Below, one piece after another: positions 140-13,568 of a stretch of 13,568 nt of DNA; positions within the stretch are counted from its first letter, which is position 1; the number at the start of each line of letters is the position of its first letter. The notes beneath the pieces are model-generated. The model was not told the DNA's origin and made no database searches. It worked only from the letters and a program-made list of their open reading frames with translations. The DNA is from Nitrospirota bacterium. GTDB taxonomy: Bacteria > Nitrospirota > Thermodesulfovibrionia > Thermodesulfovibrionales > Dissulfurispiraceae. The stretch spans positions 1 through 13,568 of the forward strand of contig JBFLWF010000048.1 in the NCBI GenBank assembly GCA_040758355.1, given 5' to 3'. A program made the position numbers and the translations under genes.

Positions 140-264
140 GGAAGACAAAGTATTGGAGCGACTTGGACAGCCCAAGCGTAACCATGGATGGTGGAGCGGG
201 CTGTCTTTGCTTCGGAGGAAGGCTGGATGCCTTCCGAGAATGAAGCGGAAATACTTTGTCTTCC
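140..264 (+). ncRNA. Structured repeat element, copy 1 (candidate ncRNA or non-autonomous mobile element; family unknown)
   Basis: Perfect 15-bp closing stem 140-154/250-264. Inner stems 166-173/198-205, 181-184/189-192 and 217-223/229-235. Core 153-251 matches the reverse complement of 4886-4983 at 88/99 positions. Strand is tentative, based on G-U pairs. Confidence 0.6.
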
Positions 265-320
265 AGCATAACAAAGTTTATGAATAATCTGACTTTGAAG
301 CCGTGCCTGCTTTGACATGA

Positions 321-770
321 TTATCTGCGTCCTTTGAAAAACTTCTTTAAGAGCGCAGCACTCTCCTCTTCCAGCACCCCTGAAACAACCTCCACCTGAT
401 GATTCAACCTTTTGTCCGAAAGAAGCTGATAAAGGCTCTGAACTGCGCCAGCCTTTGTGTCCCCACAGCCATACACGAGCCTTCCCAATCGGGCATTCAC
501 CATAGCGCCTGCACACATTATGCAAGGCTCTTTCGTCACATAAAGGGCTGCACCAGTCAGTCTCCAATTTTTAATCTTCTGTGCGGCTTCTCTCAAGACG
601 ATTACTTCTGCATGGGCAGTCGGGTCAAAAACCGATTCCCTCTTGTTGTGGGCACGTGCAATTATTTCGCCTTTTATGACAAGGACGGCGCCGACAGGGA
701 CTTCATCTTCATTAAATGCCTTTTCTGCCTCCTTCAAGGCAAGCCTCATGAAATCAATATCTGAAGCCAT
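321..770 (-). CDS. tadA: tRNA adenosine(34) deaminase
   Basis: EVPVGAV, PTAHAE and EPCIMCAGA zinc-deaminase motifs; 149 aa. Confidence 0.95.
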   Translation of the reverse strand: MASDIDFMRLALKEAEKAFNEDEVPVGAVLVIKGEIIARAHNKRESVFDPTAHAEVIVLREAAQKIKNWRLTGAALYVTKEPCIMCAGAMVNARLGRLVYGCGDTKAGAVQSLYQLLSDKRLNHQVEVVSGVLEEESAALLKKFFKGRR

Positions 771-778
771 TTTGTCAG

Positions 779-1126
779 TTAACTCTCCACTTCCAGTTCC
801 GCTAACTCCACACCATTGCCGGCTTTTATTATAACCGAATCACTCCCACAGCATGGACATTGAAAGATGAAGTCTCTATCCACGCTGAACTCGCCATTAC
901 AGGTCTTACAGCATCCGGTTGTAGGTATTTCTTCGATTATCAGGGATGCTTCGCTTGCAATGCTTCCTGTCTTTAGTGCGTCAAAAACAAAAATTAAGGC
1001 CTCGGTTGATACTGCCGAGGCCTTTCCAATCTTCACTTTTATATTTTTTATCTGGCCGAAACCGTTATCTCTACATTTCCATATGGCTGTTTCAAGAATG
1101 CTTTCGGCAATGTAAACTTCGTGCAT
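779..1126 (-). CDS. hypA: Hydrogenase maturation nickel metallochaperone HypA/HybF
   Basis: N-terminal MHE nickel site and two CxxC zinc motifs (CKTC, CPCC); 115 aa. Confidence 0.9.
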   Translation of the reverse strand: MHEVYIAESILETAIWKCRDNGFGQIKNIKVKIGKASAVSTEALIFVFDALKTGSIASEASLIIEEIPTTGCCKTCNGEFSVDRDFIFQCPCCGSDSVIIKAGNGVELAELEVES

Positions 1127-1129
1127 TTC

Positions 1130-1432
1130 CTACTTATGCACTTCCTTCTCGTAAGCCTCTTTGCCTGCCTCAAATGCTGCTGTTAACGCAGATTTTTTCT
1201 CTTCGACAAGATGTTTGCCTTTTTCCACTGTTGAAACAACCTTTTCCTTGGTCTGACCGACATATTCGGTTGCCTTCTCCCTTACATCATCTGTAAATTC
1301 CCGGATTCTTTTCCTTGTTTCCACACCAGATTGCGGCGCAAGAAGCAGCGCCAGTCCAGCGCCCACCATACCGCCCAAAAGGAATGATAGCAATACAGAA
1401 CCCGCACTGAAACCGCCTTCTTCGTGTCTCAT
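1130..1432 (-). CDS. YtxH domain-containing protein
   Basis: FLLGGMVGAGLALLLAPQSGVETR signature followed by a charged helical tail; RBS AGGAGG. Confidence 0.85.
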   Translation of the reverse strand: MRHEEGGFSAGSVLLSFLLGGMVGAGLALLLAPQSGVETRKRIREFTDDVREKATEYVGQTKEKVVSTVEKGKHLVEEKKSALTAAFEAGKEAYEKEVHK

Positions 1433-1451
1433 GTTGTCCTCCTTTCTTTAG

Positions 1452-1856
1452 TCATCTACTCATCAACTCTTTAAGTAGTACATTCAGGGCTGTTTTAATG
1501 CCCGCCTTTACACCCAGAACCCTTAATGACATCCCTTCTCTTACATCATGTACAATACTGCTGAGCGCCCTGAGATTATCCACAATTTCATACAGTGCCC
1601 CTGAAAAATTCCTTGCATTCTCTGTAACTGTTCCCACATCATCGCTCACCTTTCTGAGGCTTTTTAGGGTCTGTTCCGTCTCCTCAAGTACAGGATTAAT
1701 CCTTTCCTCGGTATTTTTCAGAAATTCTTTGAATGTCTGTGCCGCCCTCCTTATCTCCAGAGAGGCATAGATAAGAAAACCGATGGCAGCGATAAAGCCG
1801 AGCGTCATTATGAAAAAGCCTACGCTCATAATCAGTATCCATGACTGGCTGTTCAT
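1452..1856 (-). CDS. DUF948 (YoxC-like) membrane-anchored coiled-coil protein
   Basis: One N-terminal TM helix followed by an amphipathic helical region. Lies directly upstream of the YtxH-like gene, the usual pairing. RBS AGGAGG. Confidence 0.7.
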   Translation of the reverse strand: MNSQSWILIMSVGFFIMTLGFIAAIGFLIYASLEIRRAAQTFKEFLKNTEERINPVLEETEQTLKSLRKVSDDVGTVTENARNFSGALYEIVDNLRALSSIVHDVREGMSLRVLGVKAGIKTALNVLLKELMSR

Positions 1857-1901
1857 CCTGCCTCCTTTTCAAGAAAAGTATATCATATTTAGCCCTGATT
1901 G

Positions 1902-2000
1902 AAAATTACATGCAGCAAGCTGCATGTAATTTTAATGCAAGGAATTATTGTTTTTACTATTCGCTCGCTAAACCGCAGCAAGCTGCGGGTAAGCTCGCTA
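1902..2000. repeat. REP/PATE-like double palindrome element
   Basis: AAAATTACATGCAGC-AA-GCTGCATGTAATTTT (1902-1933, perfect 15-bp arms) and CCGCAGC-AA-GCTGCGG (1973-1988) share the core GCAGCAAGCTGC. Direct repeat GCTCGCTA at 1963-1970 and 1993-2000. Confidence 0.7.
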
Positions 2001-3563
2001 TCCATTTAATATGCCTACGAATAATCTCACCAGCGTGGGATCAAACTGCGTTCCTGCTCCGGACTTCATCTCTTCTACGGCTTTCTCGCTGGTCATTGCG
2101 CTTCTGTAAGGTCTGTCTGCTGTTATCGCATCGTATACATCAGCCACGGCTAAAATACGCGCCTCGAGGGGAATATCATCACCTGCAAGGCCGTCAGGGT
2201 ATCCTGAGCCGTCATATCGTTCATGGTGATGCTTCATTATAGGTATTATATCCCTGAGCGATTTCAGGGGCATAAGAATTTCAGCCCCCTGTGATGGATG
2301 TTTGTGGATCAACTCAACTTCTTCCGATGTCAGATCGCCTGGCTTATCAAGTATTGCCTCGTATGTACCTATCTTTCCGATATCGTGCAGTATTGCTGCC
2401 AACTGGAGTTTCTCAAGGGTGTCCTTTTTAAGTCCAACCCTGCTCCCGAGTTTCATGGCATAATCCGCCACCCGCAAGGAATGTCCCTTTGTCCATCTGG
2501 ACTTTGCATCAATGGCAGATACCAGAGATGTAACAGTACCAAGGAATATCTCTTCGATATCCTCCATTAGCCGTGCATTTTCCAATGCTATGCCAACCTG
2601 TGTGGCGACCTTTTCGGCGGTTGTTATATGTATCTTTGTGAACCATGCTGGTCGTACGCTGGACAAAATTAATACTCCCAGAAAGTCGCCTTTGACGCTT
2701 ATCGGTACGCAAAAATAAGAAATTACATTTTTCTCGCTTGTCCACTCCGCCTGCTTTGGATACTCCCTGAAGTCGAGGGTTATATCGTGCTGATAAAAAG
2801 ATTTTCCACTTTTTGAAACCGTGTAAAAGGGTGTATCGTCCTTCCCTATTTCCACACCCTTATCAATACCGGTGCCCCATGATGTGATCACACGAAAAAC
2901 ATCCTTCGCACCCTCAAACAGTGCCGCAGTAGCGCCATCACATGGGATTACCCTTCTTATCATCTGGACAACGGTTTCTACTATCTCCTCGGTTTTGAGG
3001 TTCGCGAGTATCTCCTTGCCGATCTCGTACATGAGCTGCAGGGTTTCTATTTCGTGGACCAGTTCCACACGGTTTTCTATTCCCTCCCTGTAGAGTATCT
3101 GGTTTTCTATGCCGAGAGAGAAGTATTTTGTTATGGCATCTATAAATTGGATATCCGAATCATCAAGGTCAGCAGACTCTGCTAACAGCACACCCACCCC
3201 TTTCCCCCTGCTGGTTATGGGACTCACAATGGCCTTTGCCTTATTTGATGATACGCCTAATTCTTCGGGTATGCCGCAGATAGCTATCGTATCTTTATTC
3301 TTTAAAACATCTTTTATAAACGATGTGCTGTCCTCTGTGCATCTTGCATATAGGGATTCAAGAATTTTGGCTCTGTGGTTTCCGGATATCGCAACTATAT
3401 TAAACTCCTCATACTCTCCTTTCATAACGATAATGCACCTCTGAAAATGCAGGAGAGATGTAACCAGACCGGTAACCGCACTACACATATCCTCTATGGC
3501 CTTCGAATCGCCAACAATTCGGGATAATTCAAAAAAAACCTCATTTATATTCCTTGGTCTCAT
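1998..3563 (-). CDS. Tandem GAF domain + HD-GYP cyclic di-nucleotide phosphodiesterase
   Basis: HS...RVA, LHDIGK and HHERYDGSGYPDGL motifs, plus ADVYDA and DRPYR. Two GAF-like segments ending in 'LGIEN' and 'IALENARL'. Confidence 0.92.
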   Translation of the reverse strand: MRPRNINEVFFELSRIVGDSKAIEDMCSAVTGLVTSLLHFQRCIIVMKGEYEEFNIVAISGNHRAKILESLYARCTEDSTSFIKDVLKNKDTIAICGIPEELGVSSNKAKAIVSPITSRGKGVGVLLAESADLDDSDIQFIDAITKYFSLGIENQILYREGIENRVELVHEIETLQLMYEIGKEILANLKTEEIVETVVQMIRRVIPCDGATAALFEGAKDVFRVITSWGTGIDKGVEIGKDDTPFYTVSKSGKSFYQHDITLDFREYPKQAEWTSEKNVISYFCVPISVKGDFLGVLILSSVRPAWFTKIHITTAEKVATQVGIALENARLMEDIEEIFLGTVTSLVSAIDAKSRWTKGHSLRVADYAMKLGSRVGLKKDTLEKLQLAAILHDIGKIGTYEAILDKPGDLTSEEVELIHKHPSQGAEILMPLKSLRDIIPIMKHHHERYDGSGYPDGLAGDDIPLEARILAVADVYDAITADRPYRSAMTSEKAVEEMKSGAGTQFDPTLVRLFVGILNG

Positions 3564-3574
3564 CTTATCCCTCC

Positions 3575-4432
3575 CTATAAATACACGGAAAATGTCTTGT
3601 CCGCCTGTATGATGTCCATAACTTCCACAATTATATCAACAAGATCGCTCTCAGACAATGAGAGGATATTCCATCCGGCCTCGTCGAGCATGGGAACAAA
3701 AGGGTCTCCGATGCAAGAAACACCTATGCCCTTTACAATGATATCGGAAAGATGCACAATGGCCGTCTCTTTCTTATGTCCACCGCACATGCCGGGCTTA
3801 TGGTGGTATGCAATGATGTCCTTTATTATCCCCGGCAGGTTCCATGTCTCGGCAAGCCATAATCCGGCATCGTCATGGGTAATATTAATAACCGCTTTCT
3901 CAGCATCCAGCGTGGTTATCCCGCTATTCTTTACCGCTGCCTCTATCTCCTTTGACTCCTCCGGCAGTTGTTTTTTTATCAAGACCTTGCCTATATCGTG
4001 GAGCAGCGCCCCTGTCATTATTTCCTCGATGGTTATGAGGTTAAATCTCTTTGCTAGAAAACCGGCGACAGTGGAGCAACAGTACGAATGATCCCATAGC
4101 CCCGGAAGCGTCTTATCCGCAACATCAAAAAGCGACGTGCTTAATATTATGCCCCTGATAAGGTTTGAACCAAGCAGTATTACGGCCCTCCTGATGGTTG
4201 CCACGTCGCTGTAAAGCCCGTAGAAGGGAGAATTAACCAGTTTCAATACCTTGCTGGATAACACCTGATCCTTCTCGATATGTTTGCTCACATCATCGAC
4301 AGAGTAGTTTATATCCTCCATTATTTTCAGTATCCTGCTGTGAATTGCAGGAATGGTGGGAAGGTCTTTTATGTTAAAGAGTCTATCGTTAATTGATGAA
4401 TGTGTGTTAGTCCGCATATCGACCGTATTCAA
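3575..4432 (-). CDS. HDOD domain-containing protein
   Basis: LPTIP, D.VL..KVLKLVNSPFYG, W.HS, LLHDIGK and W.LP...YHH motifs. The start codon (TTG or a downstream ATG) is uncertain. Confidence 0.9.
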   Translation of the reverse strand: MNTVDMRTNTHSSINDRLFNIKDLPTIPAIHSRILKIMEDINYSVDDVSKHIEKDQVLSSKVLKLVNSPFYGLYSDVATIRRAVILLGSNLIRGIILSTSLFDVADKTLPGLWDHSYCCSTVAGFLAKRFNLITIEEIMTGALLHDIGKVLIKKQLPEESKEIEAAVKNSGITTLDAEKAVINITHDDAGLWLAETWNLPGIIKDIIAYHHKPGMCGGHKKETAIVHLSDIIVKGIGVSCIGDPFVPMLDEAGWNILSLSESDLVDIIVEVMDIIQADKTFSVYL

Positions 4433-4719
4433 AACAAGAGTTCCTTTATGATGTCCTTTATTTTTAAGACCATCGGGTGTGAGCCTGCGGTACTGAACCG
4501 CCTGTCTATCTCCTTAAAAGAGCTTTCAGCCGCACCGGTTTCCCTCTTTACCGGGCATCCTTCCACAACCACCTTCTTTATGTCCCTGTTATTCAATATG
4601 ATAATATGTCTTTCGGTGAGTTCCACTCCCTTAAGAAACAGGATATTGCCGTCTTTGTCCTTTACTGTGGCAGCAAGTATCATGGAGGGCTTTACCTCAT
4701 CTATATCCAATTTCTGCAT
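4429..4719 (-). CDS. Small hypothetical protein, resembling the N-terminal module of HD-GYP proteins
   Basis: 'I.EVKP.M.LA..V.D..G..L..KG.ELT' pattern; its stop overlaps the start of the HDOD gene. Confidence 0.75.
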   Translation of the reverse strand: MQKLDIDEVKPSMILAATVKDKDGNILFLKGVELTERHIIILNNRDIKKVVVEGCPVKRETGAAESSFKEIDRRFSTAGSHPMVLKIKDIIKELLF

Positions 4720-4749
4720 ATAAGACCTTCCCCTTAAAAATAATAATAA

Positions 4750-4777
4750 ATTTTACCATTTCTTAACAAAAAAGCAA
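4750..4777 (-). promoter_or_regulatory. Putative sigma70 promoter for the HDOD/HD-GYP operon
   Basis: Minus strand TTGCTT-16 nt-TAAAAT, with an extended -10 TG motif. Confidence 0.4.
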
Positions 4778-4800
4778 TAAAAATATGCAGTCCACGAATT

Positions 4801-5106
4801 CAGCGATAAGGATGTGGCTCTGAAGTGAATAGCGATGTTTTGGTAACAGTTCTTTGCGACTGGAGCGTCAGGCAATGGTATAATCTTTCCGCTTCATTCT
4901 CGACAGGCATCCAGCCATTCTCCGAAGCAAAGACAGCCCGCTTAGGCATCCATGCCACGCTTGGGCTGTCCAAGTCGCTCCAAGACCATACCATTGCCTG
5001 ACAGCCGCAACTGTTTGAGCGAAGCGAGTTTTGCGGATGTAGCGGAAGGAGCATTAGAACTGTCAAAACATAGCTCCTGAACGAAAGAGACTTATCCTTA
5101 TAGCTG
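4801..5106 (-). ncRNA. Structured repeat element, copy 2 (apparently full length, about 305 nt)
   Basis: Nested inverted repeats: 4801-4813/5094-5106 (12/13), 4831-4853/5056-5075 (bulged), 4867-4881/4988-5002 (perfect 15 bp) and 4932-4939/4963-4970. Side hairpin 5005-5010/5031-5036. Core shared with 153-251. Strand is tentative. Confidence 0.65.
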
Positions 5107-5117
5107 GATATCAATAC

Positions 5118-5690
5118 TCATCCACTGATGCGTGTCATCTTATAGACGTGGATGATTCTCTGGATTGCAGTGGCATGGCTGAAGAAAAACAGCATGACAA
5201 TTACCGGAAATAACCATCCTGCTATACAGCCGAAGGCTAAGAGCACCACCCTCTCAGGCCTTTCCATGAGCCCGATGGTGCATGCAACGCCAATGCCTTC
5301 TGCCCTTGCCCTCACATAGCTTATGAGCAATGCCCCCACGAGGCTGCCCGCAGTAAATATCACGCCTGCAAGATCGTCCATATCGAAAAAGTACCATGCA
5401 ACAGCAATAAAAATAAGGGAATCGGAGTATCTATCGAGGGTTGAGTCGAGAAGCGCACCGAATTTGGTGCTCTTTCCGTTTGTGCGGGCAACGATGCCGT
5501 CGAGCATGTCAAAAAAGCCGCCGAGGAGTATTAAAAGCCCGCCGGTCAAAGGGTTAAATGGTATGCTGACGGCAGCGGCTGCTGTAATCAGGAAACCGAG
5601 TATGGTAAGGATATTTGGACTTATGGATATTTTCTTTGCTATAGGTGCAAGGGGTTTATCGAGGAAATGCCCCAGTTTAGCACTTATCAC
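5118..5690 (-). CDS. CDP-alcohol phosphatidyltransferase, probable phosphatidylinositol-phosphate synthase type
   Basis: Family motif DxxDGxxAR...GxxxDxxxD (DMLDGIVAR...GALLDSTLDRYSD), ISPN.LT, SYVRARAE and ERPER; adjacent to ino1. Confidence 0.88.
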   Translation of the reverse strand: MISAKLGHFLDKPLAPIAKKISISPNILTILGFLITAAAAVSIPFNPLTGGLLILLGGFFDMLDGIVARTNGKSTKFGALLDSTLDRYSDSLIFIAVAWYFFDMDDLAGVIFTAGSLVGALLISYVRARAEGIGVACTIGLMERPERVVLLAFGCIAGWLFPVIVMLFFFSHATAIQRIIHVYKMTRISG

Positions 5691-10074: not shown

Positions 10075-10362
10075 TTACCTGTTTTCCTCAATACGTTTCT
10101 TCATCAACCCGTAGACTTCTTTTCTATGCCGGATGCCGATGATTAGCACATTCTGTTCCTCTATTAAAAATACCACCCTATAGTCGCCGACTCGCAGCTT
10201 CCAGTATCCTTTAAGTGTTTTCCTGAGCGGTTCTCCATATTCATAAGGAGCTACAGATAAGCGCGTTTCTATCGCGGTCCTGATACGCGATTTGATATCG
10301 GCATTTAAAAGCGGAATATCATCGGTTCTGACGGCCTGATGATATTTAAGGGTATAAGGCAT
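10075..10362 (-). CDS. Type II toxin, RelE/ParE family
   Basis: G.PLR..LKGYWKLRVGDYRVVF and IGIRHRKEVY motifs; 95 aa. Confidence 0.9.
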   Translation of the reverse strand: MPYTLKYHQAVRTDDIPLLNADIKSRIRTAIETRLSVAPYEYGEPLRKTLKGYWKLRVGDYRVVFLIEEQNVLIIGIRHRKEVYGLMKKRIEENR

Positions 10363-10590
10363 TTAGCCCCACGCTTCATCGTGCGATAATGCCTTTTTCC
10401 TGTTAAATGACTTCATCCGCTCATCAGCAAACGCCGCGAGGGCCGCGTCTTCTTTTAATTCCAAAGCTTCCTTGATCAGATCCCGCACCACCATCGCCAT
10501 AGAAATACCGCTGTCTTCCGCCATGTCATGAATAGCGGTATATAGCGGACGCTCAACAACTATATTTATTCTCGGATTCTTTGCCGGCAT
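10363..10590 (-). CDS. RHH-type antitoxin
   Basis: Beta-helix-helix N-terminus (PRINIVV...LY.AI..MA..SG.SM..VVRDLI) and a C-terminal SHDEAW. Start re-assigned to ATG 10590 (RBS AAGGAGGT); abuts the toxin start. Confidence 0.85.
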   Translation of the reverse strand: MPAKNPRINIVVERPLYTAIHDMAEDSGISMAMVVRDLIKEALELKEDAALAAFADERMKSFNRKKALSHDEAWG

Positions 10591-10619
10591 AATTTTTACC
10601 TCCTTTGACCCTTGAATAT

Positions 10620-10648
10620 AGTGTAACACAGGTGGAACACTCTGTCAA
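10620..10648 (-). promoter_or_regulatory. Sigma70 promoter with overlapping operator for the TA operon
   Basis: TTGACA-17 nt-TACACT. Boxes GTGTAACAC (10621-10629) and GTGGAACAC (10632-10640) lie over the spacer and -10. Confidence 0.75.
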
Positions 10649-10656
10649 TTGGGGGC

Positions 10657-10791
10657 TTAAACCTCTTCCCTCCACTCTACCAATCGCTCCCACCTTCCTA
10701 CACTCTGCCAGACGGATGATGTGTTTGTGTTTTTTATTTTCAGGATAATAAGGATTGTTTGCGAAATCCCCATGTCAGCAATAAATTTCAT
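10657..10791 (-). pseudogene. Truncated DUF5615 PIN-like toxin remnant
   Basis: Begins MKFIADMGISQT, a DUF5615-type N-terminus, just downstream of DUF433. It then runs into unrelated repeat sequence and stops at 44 aa. Confidence 0.65.
10690..10736. repeat. Degenerate 47-nt direct repeat, copy A
   Basis: 10704-10735 matches 11235-11266 at 26/32 positions, ungapped. Confidence 0.55.
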
Positions 10792-10796
10792 GCTGT

Positions 10797-11024
10797 TTAA
10801 TTAAGCGCGGGATGTAGTTCTTCTTTGGCAAGCCAAGAGCCGTACTGAAGGGCTTCCTTTATGTCTTCAGGCTCGAGGTCAGGATATTCCTTGATTATCT
10901 TTTCAGAGGTCATGCCGTTTGCAACAAGATTTATTATCAGGGAAACGGGTATCCGCATTCCCCTTATACATGCCTGCCCGCCCATAATCTCTCTGTTGAA
11001 TGTTATTCTCTTGAATTCCTTCAT
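10797..11024 (-). CDS. DUF433 domain-containing protein (antitoxin-like)
   Basis: RIT...IMGGQACIRGMRIPV, YPDLE.EDI.EAL.Y motifs; RBS GGAGGT. Confidence 0.92.
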   Translation of the reverse strand: MKEFKRITFNREIMGGQACIRGMRIPVSLIINLVANGMTSEKIIKEYPDLEPEDIKEALQYGSWLAKEELHPALN

Positions 11025-11118
11025 ATCATACCTCCAAGAAAACCTTGATGAATTTATTATATAACAGCTTACCGCCTTTTACATCTTACATCTTCCCTTT
11101 CCGCCCTATTAACCAATA

Positions 11119-11165
11119 TCAATCTCCAGCCATCTGCGCGAGGGATGATGAGCCTGTCATTTTTT
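11119..11165. repeat. Degenerate 47-nt direct repeat, copy C
   Basis: 37/47 ungapped identity to 11221-11267. Confidence 0.65.
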
Positions 11166-11220
11166 GTTCTTCCGAAACTGGTCGCTGACCCTATTATTTA
11201 CCTTGAAATCTTCCACAATC

Positions 11221-11267
11221 TCAATCTCCTGCCATCTGCCTGACAGATAATGTGTGTGTCCTTTTTT
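11221..11267. repeat. Degenerate 47-nt direct repeat, copy B
   Basis: 37/47 identity to 11119-11165; contains ATCTG-N5-CAGAT; overlaps the stop codon of the 242-aa ORF. Confidence 0.65.
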
Positions 11268-11994
11268 ACATTTTTCTTATTACAATTTCTTTATCCATCA
11301 TATCACTATCGGTATCTTTCCAGTTACCGGACCAGTAAAGCTCAAAATCTGCTTTAGCCGGAGCAGCGTTACTAGCTGTAGCTGTAATTTTGAATCTATA
11401 TGTCCCCGGTAGTAGATAATTTGGCTTTGCAAACGGTTGAATCGCAAAATCAAACCAGAATAAAAGTTTTTCGTCTTTTTTAGGAAAAACTGGACCAGTA
11501 TTGATATTCATTTGTTGTGCATTAGGTTCCAGTATAAAACCTAAATCACAAAACTTATATATTCCAAACGGCTGGATATTTTGTTTTATCCCTTTGAAAT
11601 GGCTCCAAACAAGATTGAGCGGTAAAAACTCAGCGTCTTGCTTATATGTACTGTCAGCTACTTTTTTGGACAGTTCTTCAACTATTACCTCGACATCTTT
11701 TGCAAGGCTCTTTCCATTATTAATGATTCTAAGTCGAAAATAATATGTCCCTATCTCTCCTCCGAACCATGTTCTATGACAATCAGGCGGTTTTAGCCAG
11801 AAACCAATTTCAAGTTCTGGCTTTTTCAGCCAATTCCAAAAACGTTCTTGAAATAGGGCTATGATCCCGAGGAACAAAGTAGTGGCAGTTGCTGTCCAAG
11901 CCATAGCCCAAGATGGCACTGGTTCCCACACCCAAGGAATTGCTATCAATTCCAATAAAAAGAGAGATGCATAAATTACAAAACGAACTTTCAT
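11266..11994 (-). CDS. Hypothetical membrane protein (two N-terminal hydrophobic helices, beta-rich soluble domain)
   Basis: 242-aa ORF whose ATG overlaps the TGA of the upstream RM gene (ATGA, 11991-11994); AT-rich. Confidence 0.75.
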   Translation of the reverse strand: MKVRFVIYASLFLLELIAIPWVWEPVPSWAMAWTATATTLFLGIIALFQERFWNWLKKPELEIGFWLKPPDCHRTWFGGEIGTYYFRLRIINNGKSLAKDVEVIVEELSKKVADSTYKQDAEFLPLNLVWSHFKGIKQNIQPFGIYKFCDLGFILEPNAQQMNINTGPVFPKKDEKLLFWFDFAIQPFAKPNYLLPGTYRFKITATASNAAPAKADFELYWSGNWKDTDSDMMDKEIVIRKM

Positions 11995-13529
11995 CTTTCT
12001 ATTAACCTGACTTCTTCCTCATTTAGTCCATACAGTTTATAAACTATCTGGTCTATCAAGTTATCGGTTGTCTTTATCTTTTCTTTCAACGGCTCAAGAA
12101 CTGACATGCTTTTTGTGAAATGCTTTTCGAGGAGTTCTTGAACTTTACGATCTGAAGGGTCTATAGATATTTTGTTTTTATTTTTTTTGAGGACATCGAG
12201 GAGATGCTCAAAGCTATGGTCATGATATTCTTTGATTGCGGTTTTGTTTGTTAAGTCCTCAATCTCTGCGCCGATTTCCCTTTCAAGCCATTTGAGGAAG
12301 CCTTTAATTTCCTCATTTTTCGTTTTATTTAACTCAATCATCTGCTCTGCAAGAAAGGCAAGGAAGTCGTGGATTGTGTCTGTCCTCTTTAAAGCGATCT
12401 CAGCGGATGTCCATTTTATAATGTCCTCGTATCTTGAATCATCGTATAACTCGATAGCTTCCTCGGCAAATTCCTTTCGCTCCATTGATGGGGTGATAAA
12501 TGAAATAGGCGGCATGGGCATTGAGTCAATTTCGTAAGAATTAACATGATTGTTTGTGCTTGTGAGTCTGAATCTCCACTCCCATAAGGATGAATTCAAT
12601 AAGGCAAGAATAGCAAAGAGATTGTATTCTTTTGGTTTAACAATATAGTTAATGGTATCTGAACAAAAATTGTTCTTCTCAATAATAGTAGCAATGATTC
12701 TACGCCAGTTATCTATTGCTGCTCCTCTCTGATAACCGATGCGAATATATTTATAGTCGTATGCTTTTGTATCTTTGCCATGAGCGTCAAGAAACCTTTT
12801 AACATCAAGATACATCGGGCTTCCTTGTTTCGGTTCTTCCTGAAATTCATAACGATTTATATGCGCTCCTCTCAGAATAATTTGTCCTTTTTCTTCATCA
12901 GTTAGATATTCGGAGTGTGATGTTAGATTAACCTCTCCCTGCTGAGATGAAACAAAGTGTTTAAGCATTACCCCATCAGAAACTTTATTCAGCTTCAGAG
13001 CAAGAGCAAAATCTTTTGTAGTCATTGTCGGATAGCTCGGGATGCTGAGATTTTCCTTGTCGAATTCTTCGATCTGAGACGGCTTTATCGTTAAGTGCGT
13101 AGAGGAGTCAAGAATATCTCTCCCCTGATGAATTCTGACATTAAACAAAGATGGCTTTTGTTTACAAAGGATGTATATACAGGTGGAAAGCTTTGCCTCA
13201 GGAAATACTCTATTTGTAGGATCATCCTTTTGAGGTAAGGCTTCTACCTTCTGCAAACTATTCTTTTTGAGCATAAATTCCCGCAAAGGTCTTGCTTGTT
13301 TATCCGCTAATAAAGCCATAGGAACGATAAAGCCATGCATACCTTTGCTCTTGAGTAAATCTAAAGATATGACACTGAAAAGACGGTATAAATTAAGCTT
13401 GCTTCCAATGGCAGGCCTATATACAATCTGATGCGAAAAAAATTCTGGCTCATCGTGGAAGAGAGTGGGTAAACCGATGGACTTGAAGCGGTATAACATG
13501 GCTTCAAATAATGGGGAAAGAGCTTTCAA
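11991..13529 (-). CDS. Type IIG (Eco57I/TaqI-like) restriction-modification enzyme, C-terminal part; 5' end missing or disrupted
   Basis: NLYRLF...G..GFIVP...L...A..LR gamma-MTase segment; TaqI_C-like LALLNS.L..W.F...S....V....I..MP.P; terminal IDQIVYKLYGL.EEEV..IE. No NPPY motif is visible. Confidence 0.8.
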   Translation of the reverse strand: MKALSPLFEAMLYRFKSIGLPTLFHDEPEFFSHQIVYRPAIGSKLNLYRLFSVISLDLLKSKGMHGFIVPMALLADKQARPLREFMLKKNSLQKVEALPQKDDPTNRVFPEAKLSTCIYILCKQKPSLFNVRIHQGRDILDSSTHLTIKPSQIEEFDKENLSIPSYPTMTTKDFALALKLNKVSDGVMLKHFVSSQQGEVNLTSHSEYLTDEEKGQIILRGAHINRYEFQEEPKQGSPMYLDVKRFLDAHGKDTKAYDYKYIRIGYQRGAAIDNWRRIIATIIEKNNFCSDTINYIVKPKEYNLFAILALLNSSLWEWRFRLTSTNNHVNSYEIDSMPMPPISFITPSMERKEFAEEAIELYDDSRYEDIIKWTSAEIALKRTDTIHDFLAFLAEQMIELNKTKNEEIKGFLKWLEREIGAEIEDLTNKTAIKEYHDHSFEHLLDVLKKNKNKISIDPSDRKVQELLEKHFTKSMSVLEPLKEKIKTTDNLIDQIVYKLYGLNEEEVRLIER

Positions 13530-13568
13530 AGGGGCGAGAAAATCCGTATGATTACCGTATGGGAAAAA

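Follow-up and report, generated by a model that had tools for sequence, protein, structure and literature searches.

A dispersed intergenic repeat with a strand-specific three-way-junction fold and loops that track host csrA

The locus and its repeat

The 13,568-nt stretch of DNA analysed here, hereafter the window, is the entire contig C48 (JBFLWF010000048.1) of the 2.77-Mb genome of a Nitrospirota bacterium (GCA_040758355.1; labelled G000). Two of its intergenic regions, one beside a tadA-like deaminase gene and the other beside a CDP-alcohol phosphatidyltransferase gene, contain copies of a structured repeat of about 130 nt, which is the subject of this work. The repeat is multi-copy and polymorphic; its fold is strand-specific and supported by covariation, and its loops are associated at genome level with csrA. 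The family is real, widespread (in Nitrospirota and certain other anaerobes) and apparently undescribed, and belongs with the GGA-loop structured repeats.

A preliminary description of the window, made from the sequence alone, had reported the two copies. Their cores, at 153–251 (forward) and 4886–4983 (reverse), are indeed identical at 88 of 99 positions, with exact runs of 27, 23 and 17 nt. The closing stems are there as well: copy 1 has a perfect 15-bp inverted repeat (140–154/250–264), and copy 2 one of 21 nt at 90%, or 22 bp when G-T pairs are counted. The predicted fold holds for both copies (z = −8.8 and −8.1 against dinucleotide shuffles, equalled by 0 of 200), and the core without its closing stem still gives z = −4.8 against dinucleotide shuffles. 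That there are only two copies is wrong: nhmmer gives 22 hits in the genome, and the covariance model 21 of full length. The claim that the stems differ wholly in sequence stands as regards their turnover, but the inner part of the stem follows a loose family consensus (by eye). Scanned against Rfam, neither copy is covered by any family at E ≤ 5. That description had missed the copy number, the nested carriers, the interpretation of the TGGA(T) loops as CsrA-type together with the way they depend on csrA in the host, and the resemblance to TwoAYGGAY. The parts of the two copies and their neighbours are as follows, P1 being the closing stem and P2 and P3 the arms.

140–264, forward: copy 1, whole element (P1, junction, arms P2 and P3); model hit 135–269, 113.5 bits
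140–154, forward: copy 1, 5′ arm of P1, pairing with 250–264 (15 of 15 complementary)
155–162, forward: copy 1, 5′ junction GGAGCGAC (conserved), the GC of which pairs with a GC near the 3′ junction
183–190, forward: copy 1, P2 apical loop CATGGATG (CsrA-type CANGGANG; consensus from PMC7652899)
209–247, forward: copy 1, junction GCTTCGGAG, arm P3 with loop CTGGATG (223–229), junction CGAGAATGAAGCG
250–264, forward: copy 1, 3′ arm of P1 (inverted-repeat match)
4866–5003, reverse: copy 2, whole element; P1 arm 4982–5003 pairs with 4866–4887 (22 bp); model hit 4868–5001, 116.7 bits
4947–4954, reverse: copy 2, P2 apical loop CATGGATG
4890–4928, reverse: copy 2, junction GCTTCGGAG (4920–4928), P3 loop CTGGATG (4908–4914), junction CGAGAATGAAGCG (4890–4902)
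321–770, reverse: tadA-like deaminase gene, with copy 1 at its 3′ side, antisense
5118–5690, reverse: CDP-alcohol phosphatidyltransferase gene, with copy 2 at its 3′ side, sense
4429–4719, reverse: open reading frame (ORF) of 96 amino acids, beyond copy 2

Fold, covariation and orientation

In all copies the order of parts is P1, the junction GAGCGR, P2, CYTCGGAG, P3, CGAGAATGA(A)GCG and P1′: the element is a three-way junction with a closing stem of about 21 bp and free sequence, a fixed junction and two arms. P1 measures 17–25 bp in 120 of 159 copies, and its sequence is nearly unique to each copy (150 distinct 5′ arms among the 159). The proposal that the fold is conserved over changing stem sequence finds strong support in covariation: among 48 diverse copies, chosen by hand and scored against the predicted consensus structure plus one pair that we added, 93% of cells are paired and 29 of 34 pairs show two-sided, compensatory changes; 0 of 500 shuffles reach the observed level, and slid controls reach 37–48%. 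The added pair joins the purine of GCGR (position 161 in copy 1) to the pyrimidine of GCYTC, and is G-C in 95 copies and A-T in 61, never mixed; it may just mark two subfamilies.

On the strand that carries GGA, P1 contains 237 G-T against 79 A-C oppositions under symmetric scoring (159 of 169 copies). This bias is alike in sense (32:12) and antisense (76:23) copies, so which strand folds is set by the element rather than by host transcription. Of 114 copies whose orientation could be classified, 53 lie antisense and 23 sense between co-directional genes, 22 between divergent and 16 between convergent genes. Antisense copies are conserved as well as sense copies, and the deficit of the latter suggests that sense copies are not neutral. 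With 53 of the 76 co-directional copies antisense, and many copies not common to congeners, a stand-alone functional noncoding RNA, which the preliminary description had also considered, becomes less likely.

In several copies other small palindromes have been inserted in the tips of P2 or P3 with the junction intact (G000 C8:35289–35453; loci L271, L320, L331, L332 and L357).

Distribution

With a pattern built on the right arm, the species collection yields at least 121 loci, in Nitrospirota, in Desulfurivibrio (a genome of Desulfurivibrio dismutans among them) and other Desulfobacterota, in Latescibacterota and in Handelsmanbacteria; the pattern matches 29 of 151 relatives, at 1–70 copies per genome. 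The covariance model met the same stem and junction with other loops in genomes in which csrA was not found (csrA−; these are draft genomes), and was then rebuilt loop-neutral; in this form, with at most 36 candidates scored per genome, it finds the family in 53 of 91 relatives. Fifteen of these 53 carriers are csrA−, and several csrA− genomes hold the scaffold at 12–30 copies. Viral contigs gave 0 matches with the GGA-type pattern. The neighbours of the copies, assigned by eye from N-terminal sequence, are unrelated housekeeping genes. The literature covered, which included few subscription journals, contains no description of the repeat family or of the association between loops and csrA.

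Mobility and nested carriers

The suggestion that the repeat is a structure-recognised, non-autonomous mobile element is supported by empty sites and by polymorphic syntenic loci. Both window sites are without the element in the congeners and relatives where their flanks were found: the copy-1 site in 5 of 5 relatives, and the copy-2 site in 3 of 3 congeners with both flanks, where it is nearly empty in one, holds another long hairpin in one and an insertion-sequence (IS)-like insert in one. When 28 loci of two congeners were compared with G000, 21 of the 26 that were listed proved syntenic; at these the core is absent from G000 in 14 cases, shared in 4 and in opposite orientation in 3, one pair (L196 and its counterpart on C9) being a clean inversion between the P1 arms. 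Many copies are thus not common to congeners, and some sites are shared. Insertion junctions are imprecise: among 159 copies, not one is bordered by flush direct repeats of 4, 5, 8 or 9 bp, and the flanks show a slight excess of direct repeats (4.6 vs 4.4 nt, p = 0.02) with no fixed duplication.

Each window copy lies within a different larger palindromic carrier.

4797–5110, no strand assigned: outer carrier A around copy 2, a nested long hairpin of about 310 nt whose terminal repeats are imperfect and which has a side hairpin, CTCGCTTCGCTC (5017–5028)
265–288, forward: 3′ arm of outer carrier B around copy 1, ending in TTTATGAATAAT
1–126, reverse: end of a multi-copy IS-like element inserted in the 5′ arm of carrier B

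Carrier A forms a nested series from a bare terminal repeat to the full composite, core-less and shorter forms included; at loci L184 and L191, two genomes hold different stages of it at the same locus. Carrier forms lacking the core are also present in contigs of four DNA sequencing runs. The 5′ arm of carrier B is left only at about 127–139, interrupted by the repeat at 1–126, and a core-less carrier B lies at G000 C1:118694–118777. The interrupting repeat has 16 hits in the genome, 15 of them near contig ends; its best Pfam match, a transposase helix-turn-helix, reaches only E = 0.22, and the repeat may be the start of an IS3-like element with the N-terminus of OrfA.

Six carrier-A copies (G000 C13:70760, C1:126557, C1:63831, C1:115815, C10:13885 and C7:48454) keep the closing stem and have, where the core would stand, a loop of 7 nt reading as the reverse complement of the core 5′ junction. 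This form, which occurs in two carrier subtypes and also in sequencing-run contigs, looks like the footprint of an inversion plus deletion. Comparison of G000 C45:9134–9268 with L208 further shows, at one site, a new copy in opposite orientation adjoining what is left of the 3′ part of an older one; sites are therefore re-used.

Candidate mobilisers

The preliminary description had pointed to a co-occurring transposase or reverse transcriptase as something to look for. The second of these is lacking where copies are many: RVT_1 has no match in any of the eight high-copy genomes, and reverse transcriptases are not associated with the element (9/22 vs 26/69). GIY-YIG nucleases have three matches in G000, none near any of the listed profile-hit copies. 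No enzyme-like gene in G000 is flanked on both sides by core or carriers, four flanked ORFs having been judged from N-terminal sequence, and no distant half-elements were found around an ORF. The transposase search identified no mobiliser, and its counts are weighed in the Discussion; the two Y1 transposase genes of G000 carry short inverted repeats of their own, unrelated to the element. At L202 (G001:C73:22319–22800), one copy has been truncated by the insertion of a Y1 gene that has short inverted repeats of its own; beside this copy lies a duplicated stretch with a second, full copy.

Loops, CsrA and host csrA

CsrA reads GGA in a hairpin loop, with the consensus RUACARGGAUGU from in vitro selection (SELEX), and its dimer bridges sites 10–63 nt apart (PMC7652899). 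The P2 loop of the element lies outside the search pattern; A(N)GGA stands there in 133 of 159 copies, and ACANGGATGT, to be compared with that consensus, is found in 64 of the 159 copies. The two GGAs stand 31–46 nt apart (33–37 in 117 of 134 copies). A(N)GGA occurs in both loops of 36 copies and in at least one loop of 154 of 159; the site occurs in P3 in 21 of the 26 copies without it in P2, as against 36 of the 133 others, a relation that is structured by subfamily. When P3 arms were sought with the loop left free, 12 of the 150 listed depart from GGATG by eye, 11 of these keep GGA, and 9 of the 12 change only the base after GGA, the free position of ANGGAN.

The host CsrA has R44 and N55 and a C-terminal extension, and is of the FliW type; its gene (C5:56134) presumably lies between a flgL-like and a fliW-like gene. 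The leader of the putative flagellin gene, picked out by a sequence motif, contains the hairpin GGGC-AGGAT-GCCC, with a further site at the ribosome-binding site. Nineteen of the 21 non-coding CANGGATG hairpins of the genome lie within the element; the reversed-loop pattern CANCCATG is the complement of the same hairpin and not a valid control. No promoter-like site was found beside either window copy, with no excess over shuffles. RNA of the GGA strand would, on the strength of these loops and their spacing, probably be bound by CsrA.

Loops and host csrA were compared at 151 loci from 47 genomes (10 loci unparsed, one genome lost), taken as top model hits and not at random. With the loop-neutral model, 44 of 60 copies whose host is csrA+ have CA(N)GGANG, as do 13 of 81 whose host is csrA−, and it is the majority form in 25 of 31 csrA+ against 2 of 15 csrA− genomes. 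P3 tips of the form cG(N)NAg show the reverse (2 of 60 vs 30 of 81 copies). GCGNAGC and GCGNNAGC are extraordinarily stable mini-hairpins as DNA, the RNA forms being much weaker (PMC13037366). Copies without GGA are not a single clade (approximately unbiased test, p = 0.0008, on a loop-masked, weakly resolved tree of 72 columns), and a GGA-free carrier motif shows no link with csrA (10/19 vs 50/91). Presence of the element as found by the GGATG-requiring pattern also goes with csrA (20/22 vs 30/69); because that pattern demanded GGATG, this comparison is circular, and we keep it only as a statement that the GGA-looped form goes with csrA. The same comparison among relatives of G151 is uninformative (9/10 vs 83/101), and the distant carriers, which have csrA in 5 of 5 cases, were themselves found by the GGA pattern. 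The scaffold is thus independent of CsrA, whereas the loops track its presence, a pattern suggestive of mobile DNA adjusted to a regulator of its host.

Known systems compared

The closest relative in kind is TwoAYGGAY (RF01731), in which two GGA-loop hairpins stand on a basal stem, the outer stem is poorly conserved and copy number varies, and for which CsrA binding and mobile-like spread have been proposed (PMC2864571; PMC4333381; bioRxiv 10.64898/2026.09.22.753630). Our element shares the two sequential GGA-loop hairpins on a common basal stem, the weakly conserved outer stem, a basal GA/GA motif in the second arm (by eye) and the large variation in copy number. However, the RF01731 model, with 77 candidates scored, matches nothing in G000 at E ≤ 10; the junction sequence is unlike the published alignment rows that were compared; P3 often reads YGGAT without the A, so that AYGGAY does not stand in both loops; the hosts of TwoAYGGAY are Gammaproteobacteria and Clostridia, whereas ours are Nitrospirota, Desulfobacterota and Latescibacterota; and GGA-free forms occur in csrA− hosts, none of which we met in the available TwoAYGGAY texts. 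Membership is therefore rejected on model score, junction and loops, in spite of the common stem. Rfam scans of the window, of 16 GGA-type loci and of 15 mixed loci gave nothing relevant. That the preliminary description could assign the element to no family thus holds for Rfam, but because it resembles a published kind of repeat, its novelty is lowered.

Like the sponges CsrB, CsrC and RsmX-Y-Z and the flagellin (hag) operator, the element has GGA in a hairpin loop matching the SELEX consensus (PMC7652899; PMC13407953), at least in csrA+ hosts, and its two sites lie within the bridging range (PMC7652899). The host studied here has CsrA, although 15 of the 53 carriers lack csrA. The element differs from the sponges in being dispersed, polymorphic and present in either orientation, with only two sites and no promoter or terminator of its own seen. 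For FliW-type CsrA, as found here, no sponge RNA is described in the available parts of PMC7652899 and PMC13407953.

REPINs and REPs with their RAYT, and TIRtrons, are likewise non-autonomous intergenic hairpins with compensatory changes, insertion into or beside other repeats and a proposed single-stranded DNA (ssDNA) intermediate (PMC3116915; PMC3733652). Our element has no conserved terminal REP or GTAG/CGTC tag, its conserved part being internal; with no conserved inverted end REPs, no element-flanked RAYT among the 31 Y1 loci examined (of about 230 matches) and none in G000, we reject a REPIN. TIRtrons (PMC3733652) resemble instead the two Y1 genes of G000. ERIC, Correia and other miniature inverted-repeat transposable elements, or MITEs, resemble it in size, stable fold, intergenic multi-copy distribution and possible RNase III processing (PMC10969869; PMC3184786); they differ in that the element has neither conserved terminal repeats nor a flush target duplication.

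Further candidates were set aside: a retron or other noncoding RNA linked to a reverse transcriptase, with no such gene adjacent or co-occurring; a self-cleaving ribozyme or riboswitch, with no Rfam match, mixed orientation and neighbours, and no constant class of 5′ gene; and likenesses to hammerhead, HDV, kink-turn, attC and retron, whose core motifs are lacking.

Other features of the window and genome

A third long-hairpin repeat of about 230 nt, in which no GGA loops were seen, is present in roughly 45 copies by BLAST depth (for example G000 C25:31751–31981 and C7:9436–9665, with a fragment at window 286–320); a hairpin resembling it occupies the copy-2 site in G002. In three congeners (L142, L144 and L145) a tRNA gene lies, by eye, just downstream of tadA; at the corresponding position of the window, 265–320, there are instead the element and an IS-like end at the contig edge.

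Window 13430–13568 matches a 25-copy sequence confined to contig ends and is in frame with a type IIG restriction-modification ORF (11991–13568, reverse); it is possibly a collapsed multi-copy gene segment or a phase-variable restriction-modification cassette. Beside that gene, 10075–11994 looks like a small island, with a ParE-type toxin and a small upstream partner, a DUF433 gene and an unassigned ORF of 242 amino acids; a 52-nt repeat occurs three times, at window 10685, 11114 and 11216. At 1893–1942, between two genes, a 24-bp inverted repeat is followed by a second small palindrome, and this stretch is missing from one run contig.

Discussion

We lean somewhat towards the reading that the repeat is a non-autonomous, dispersed intergenic element of about 130 nt built in two layers, a strand-folded scaffold and exchangeable tips that track csrA. 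The scaffold, that is, the free stem of about 21 bp with its sequence-fixed three-way junction, would fold on one particular strand; a host or element factor would recognise the junction during copying to further intergenic sites, often ones within other palindromic repeats; and copying would pass through a folded single strand, likelier ssDNA than RNA. We favour DNA because of the mini-hairpin tips in csrA− hosts and the lack of a reverse transcriptase. The arm tips would be exchangeable: in the presence of csrA, CsrA/RsmA-type GGA loops would be retained at their spacing of 31–46 nt, so that one CsrA dimer could clamp a transcript of the GGA strand, and in its absence the tips would drift or turn into DNA mini-hairpin loops. 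CsrA binding would then be kept in the lineages that spread in csrA+ hosts, and its benefit, by conjecture, may be to protect a fragment released by RNase III or to soften the effect on host mRNA.

Several observations weigh against this reading. Compensatory changes in long stems can arise through template switching without selection, and the pattern seen here (outer stems variable yet complementary, cores inverted, carriers collapsed) fits template switching in long palindromes; for this reason, the covariation of P1 alone is weak evidence of selection, and the fixed junction and loop pattern is the stronger evidence. Searches for Y1, GIY-YIG and reverse transcriptase genes, for repeat-flanked genes and for half-elements identified no mobiliser. 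Y1/HUH genes are present in 7 of the 8 high-copy genomes and absent from G035, which has 20+ copies and no Y1 match, and the link is weak (p = 0.09); among 31 Y1 loci examined out of about 230 matches, a single one is close to a core, into which it has inserted. There is no leading/lagging strand bias (11:11, the GC skew of the contigs being weak). As to the loops, the comparison with csrA drew on top model hits; P3 has no A before GGA in 109 of the 169 pattern-found copies, or 118 of 159, and most P3 loops of Nitrospirota are of this kind; and independent contrasts on supported branches of the 72-column tree come only to about 3:0 (p = 0.25). G016 has neither csrA nor flagellin, yet holds 28 copies, of which 11 of 11 parsed keep the loops; G017 (66% complete) and G041 are csrA− with one GGA-loop copy each; and G055, which is csrA+, has an A(N)GGA loop in 0 of 6 copies read. 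Because csrA travels together with flagellar genes, another linked factor is possible.

It is also conceivable, but in our judgement unlikely, that the host maintains the repeat as a multi-copy CsrA sponge: the element would be co-transcribed and released by RNase III as an RNA of about 110 nt that titrates CsrA alongside FliW, mobility being secondary. A stem of 17–25 bp suits RNase III, the prevailing length of P1 lies in this range with free sequence, and rnc is present. Correia MITE repeats are cut by RNase III (PMC10969869), the loops and their spacing fit CsrA, and some sites are common to congeners. A sponge is harder to reconcile with the predominance of antisense copies that are conserved like sense copies, with most sites not being common to relatives, with the abundant scaffold of several csrA− genomes, and with the lack of a promoter-like site by either window copy.

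The loops may not be CsrA sites at all: a lineage-specific mobiliser could read them as DNA, or they could mark subfamilies, and the link with csrA would reflect shared lineage or a motile lifestyle. The small number of independent contrasts, the four exceptional genomes, the many P3 loops without the upstream A and a strand bias independent of transcription all agree with this. We nevertheless consider it quite improbable, given that departing P3 arms nearly always keep GGA and mostly vary only the free base, that P3 tends to have the site where P2 lacks it, that the flagellin leader has the same type of loop, that GGA loss is polyphyletic and that the control carrier repeat shows no link with csrA.

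Movement in the manner of a bacterial short interspersed element, via a folded, CsrA-protected RNA and a reverse transcriptase acting in trans, is very unlikely: strand-specific G-U pairing, CsrA loops retained in antisense copies, imprecise junctions and the lack of target duplications would fit an RNA intermediate, but RVT_1 is missing from the high-copy genomes and shows no association, and DNA mini-hairpin loops appear in csrA− hosts. A MITE of the classical kind, with terminal inverted repeats and a DDE transposase to move it, which size, inverted ends, intergenic location, variable copy number and the several multi-copy IS ends of the genome might recall, is hardly tenable and already largely refuted, since the ends of the element are its least conserved part, conservation lies in the internal junction, and flush direct repeats are lacking.

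The two-layer reading that we prefer adds to earlier work the separation of a CsrA-independent scaffold from loops that track CsrA. Since 2014, loops of the TwoAYGGAY type have been put forward as sites for CsrA, with no validation in the papers covered, and a preprint of 2026 regards the connection of mobility with regulation as unresolved (bioRxiv 10.64898/2026.09.22.753630). In this respect the family is a natural control: the same scaffold occurs with or without GGA loops, sorted by host csrA. The conserved junction is, moreover, a ready bait for the factor that moves long-hairpin repeats lacking a known transposase. A 2020 review stated it to be unknown whether FliW and RNA antagonists act jointly in any species; a FliW-type host with 19 of 21 non-coding CANGGATG hairpins in one repeat bears on that question. 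In a bolder form, which we put forward tentatively and regard as doubtful, the repeat would be a selfish hairpin with a dual code, a junction read as ssDNA by a copying machinery with no HUH, DDE or reverse transcriptase partner, and tips repeatedly adapted to the host, as CsrA operators in the presence of CsrA and as DNA mini-hairpins in its absence. If this were true, no RNA antagonist of a FliW-type CsrA would precede its transcripts, and such repeats would be a source from which Csr sponge RNAs arise.

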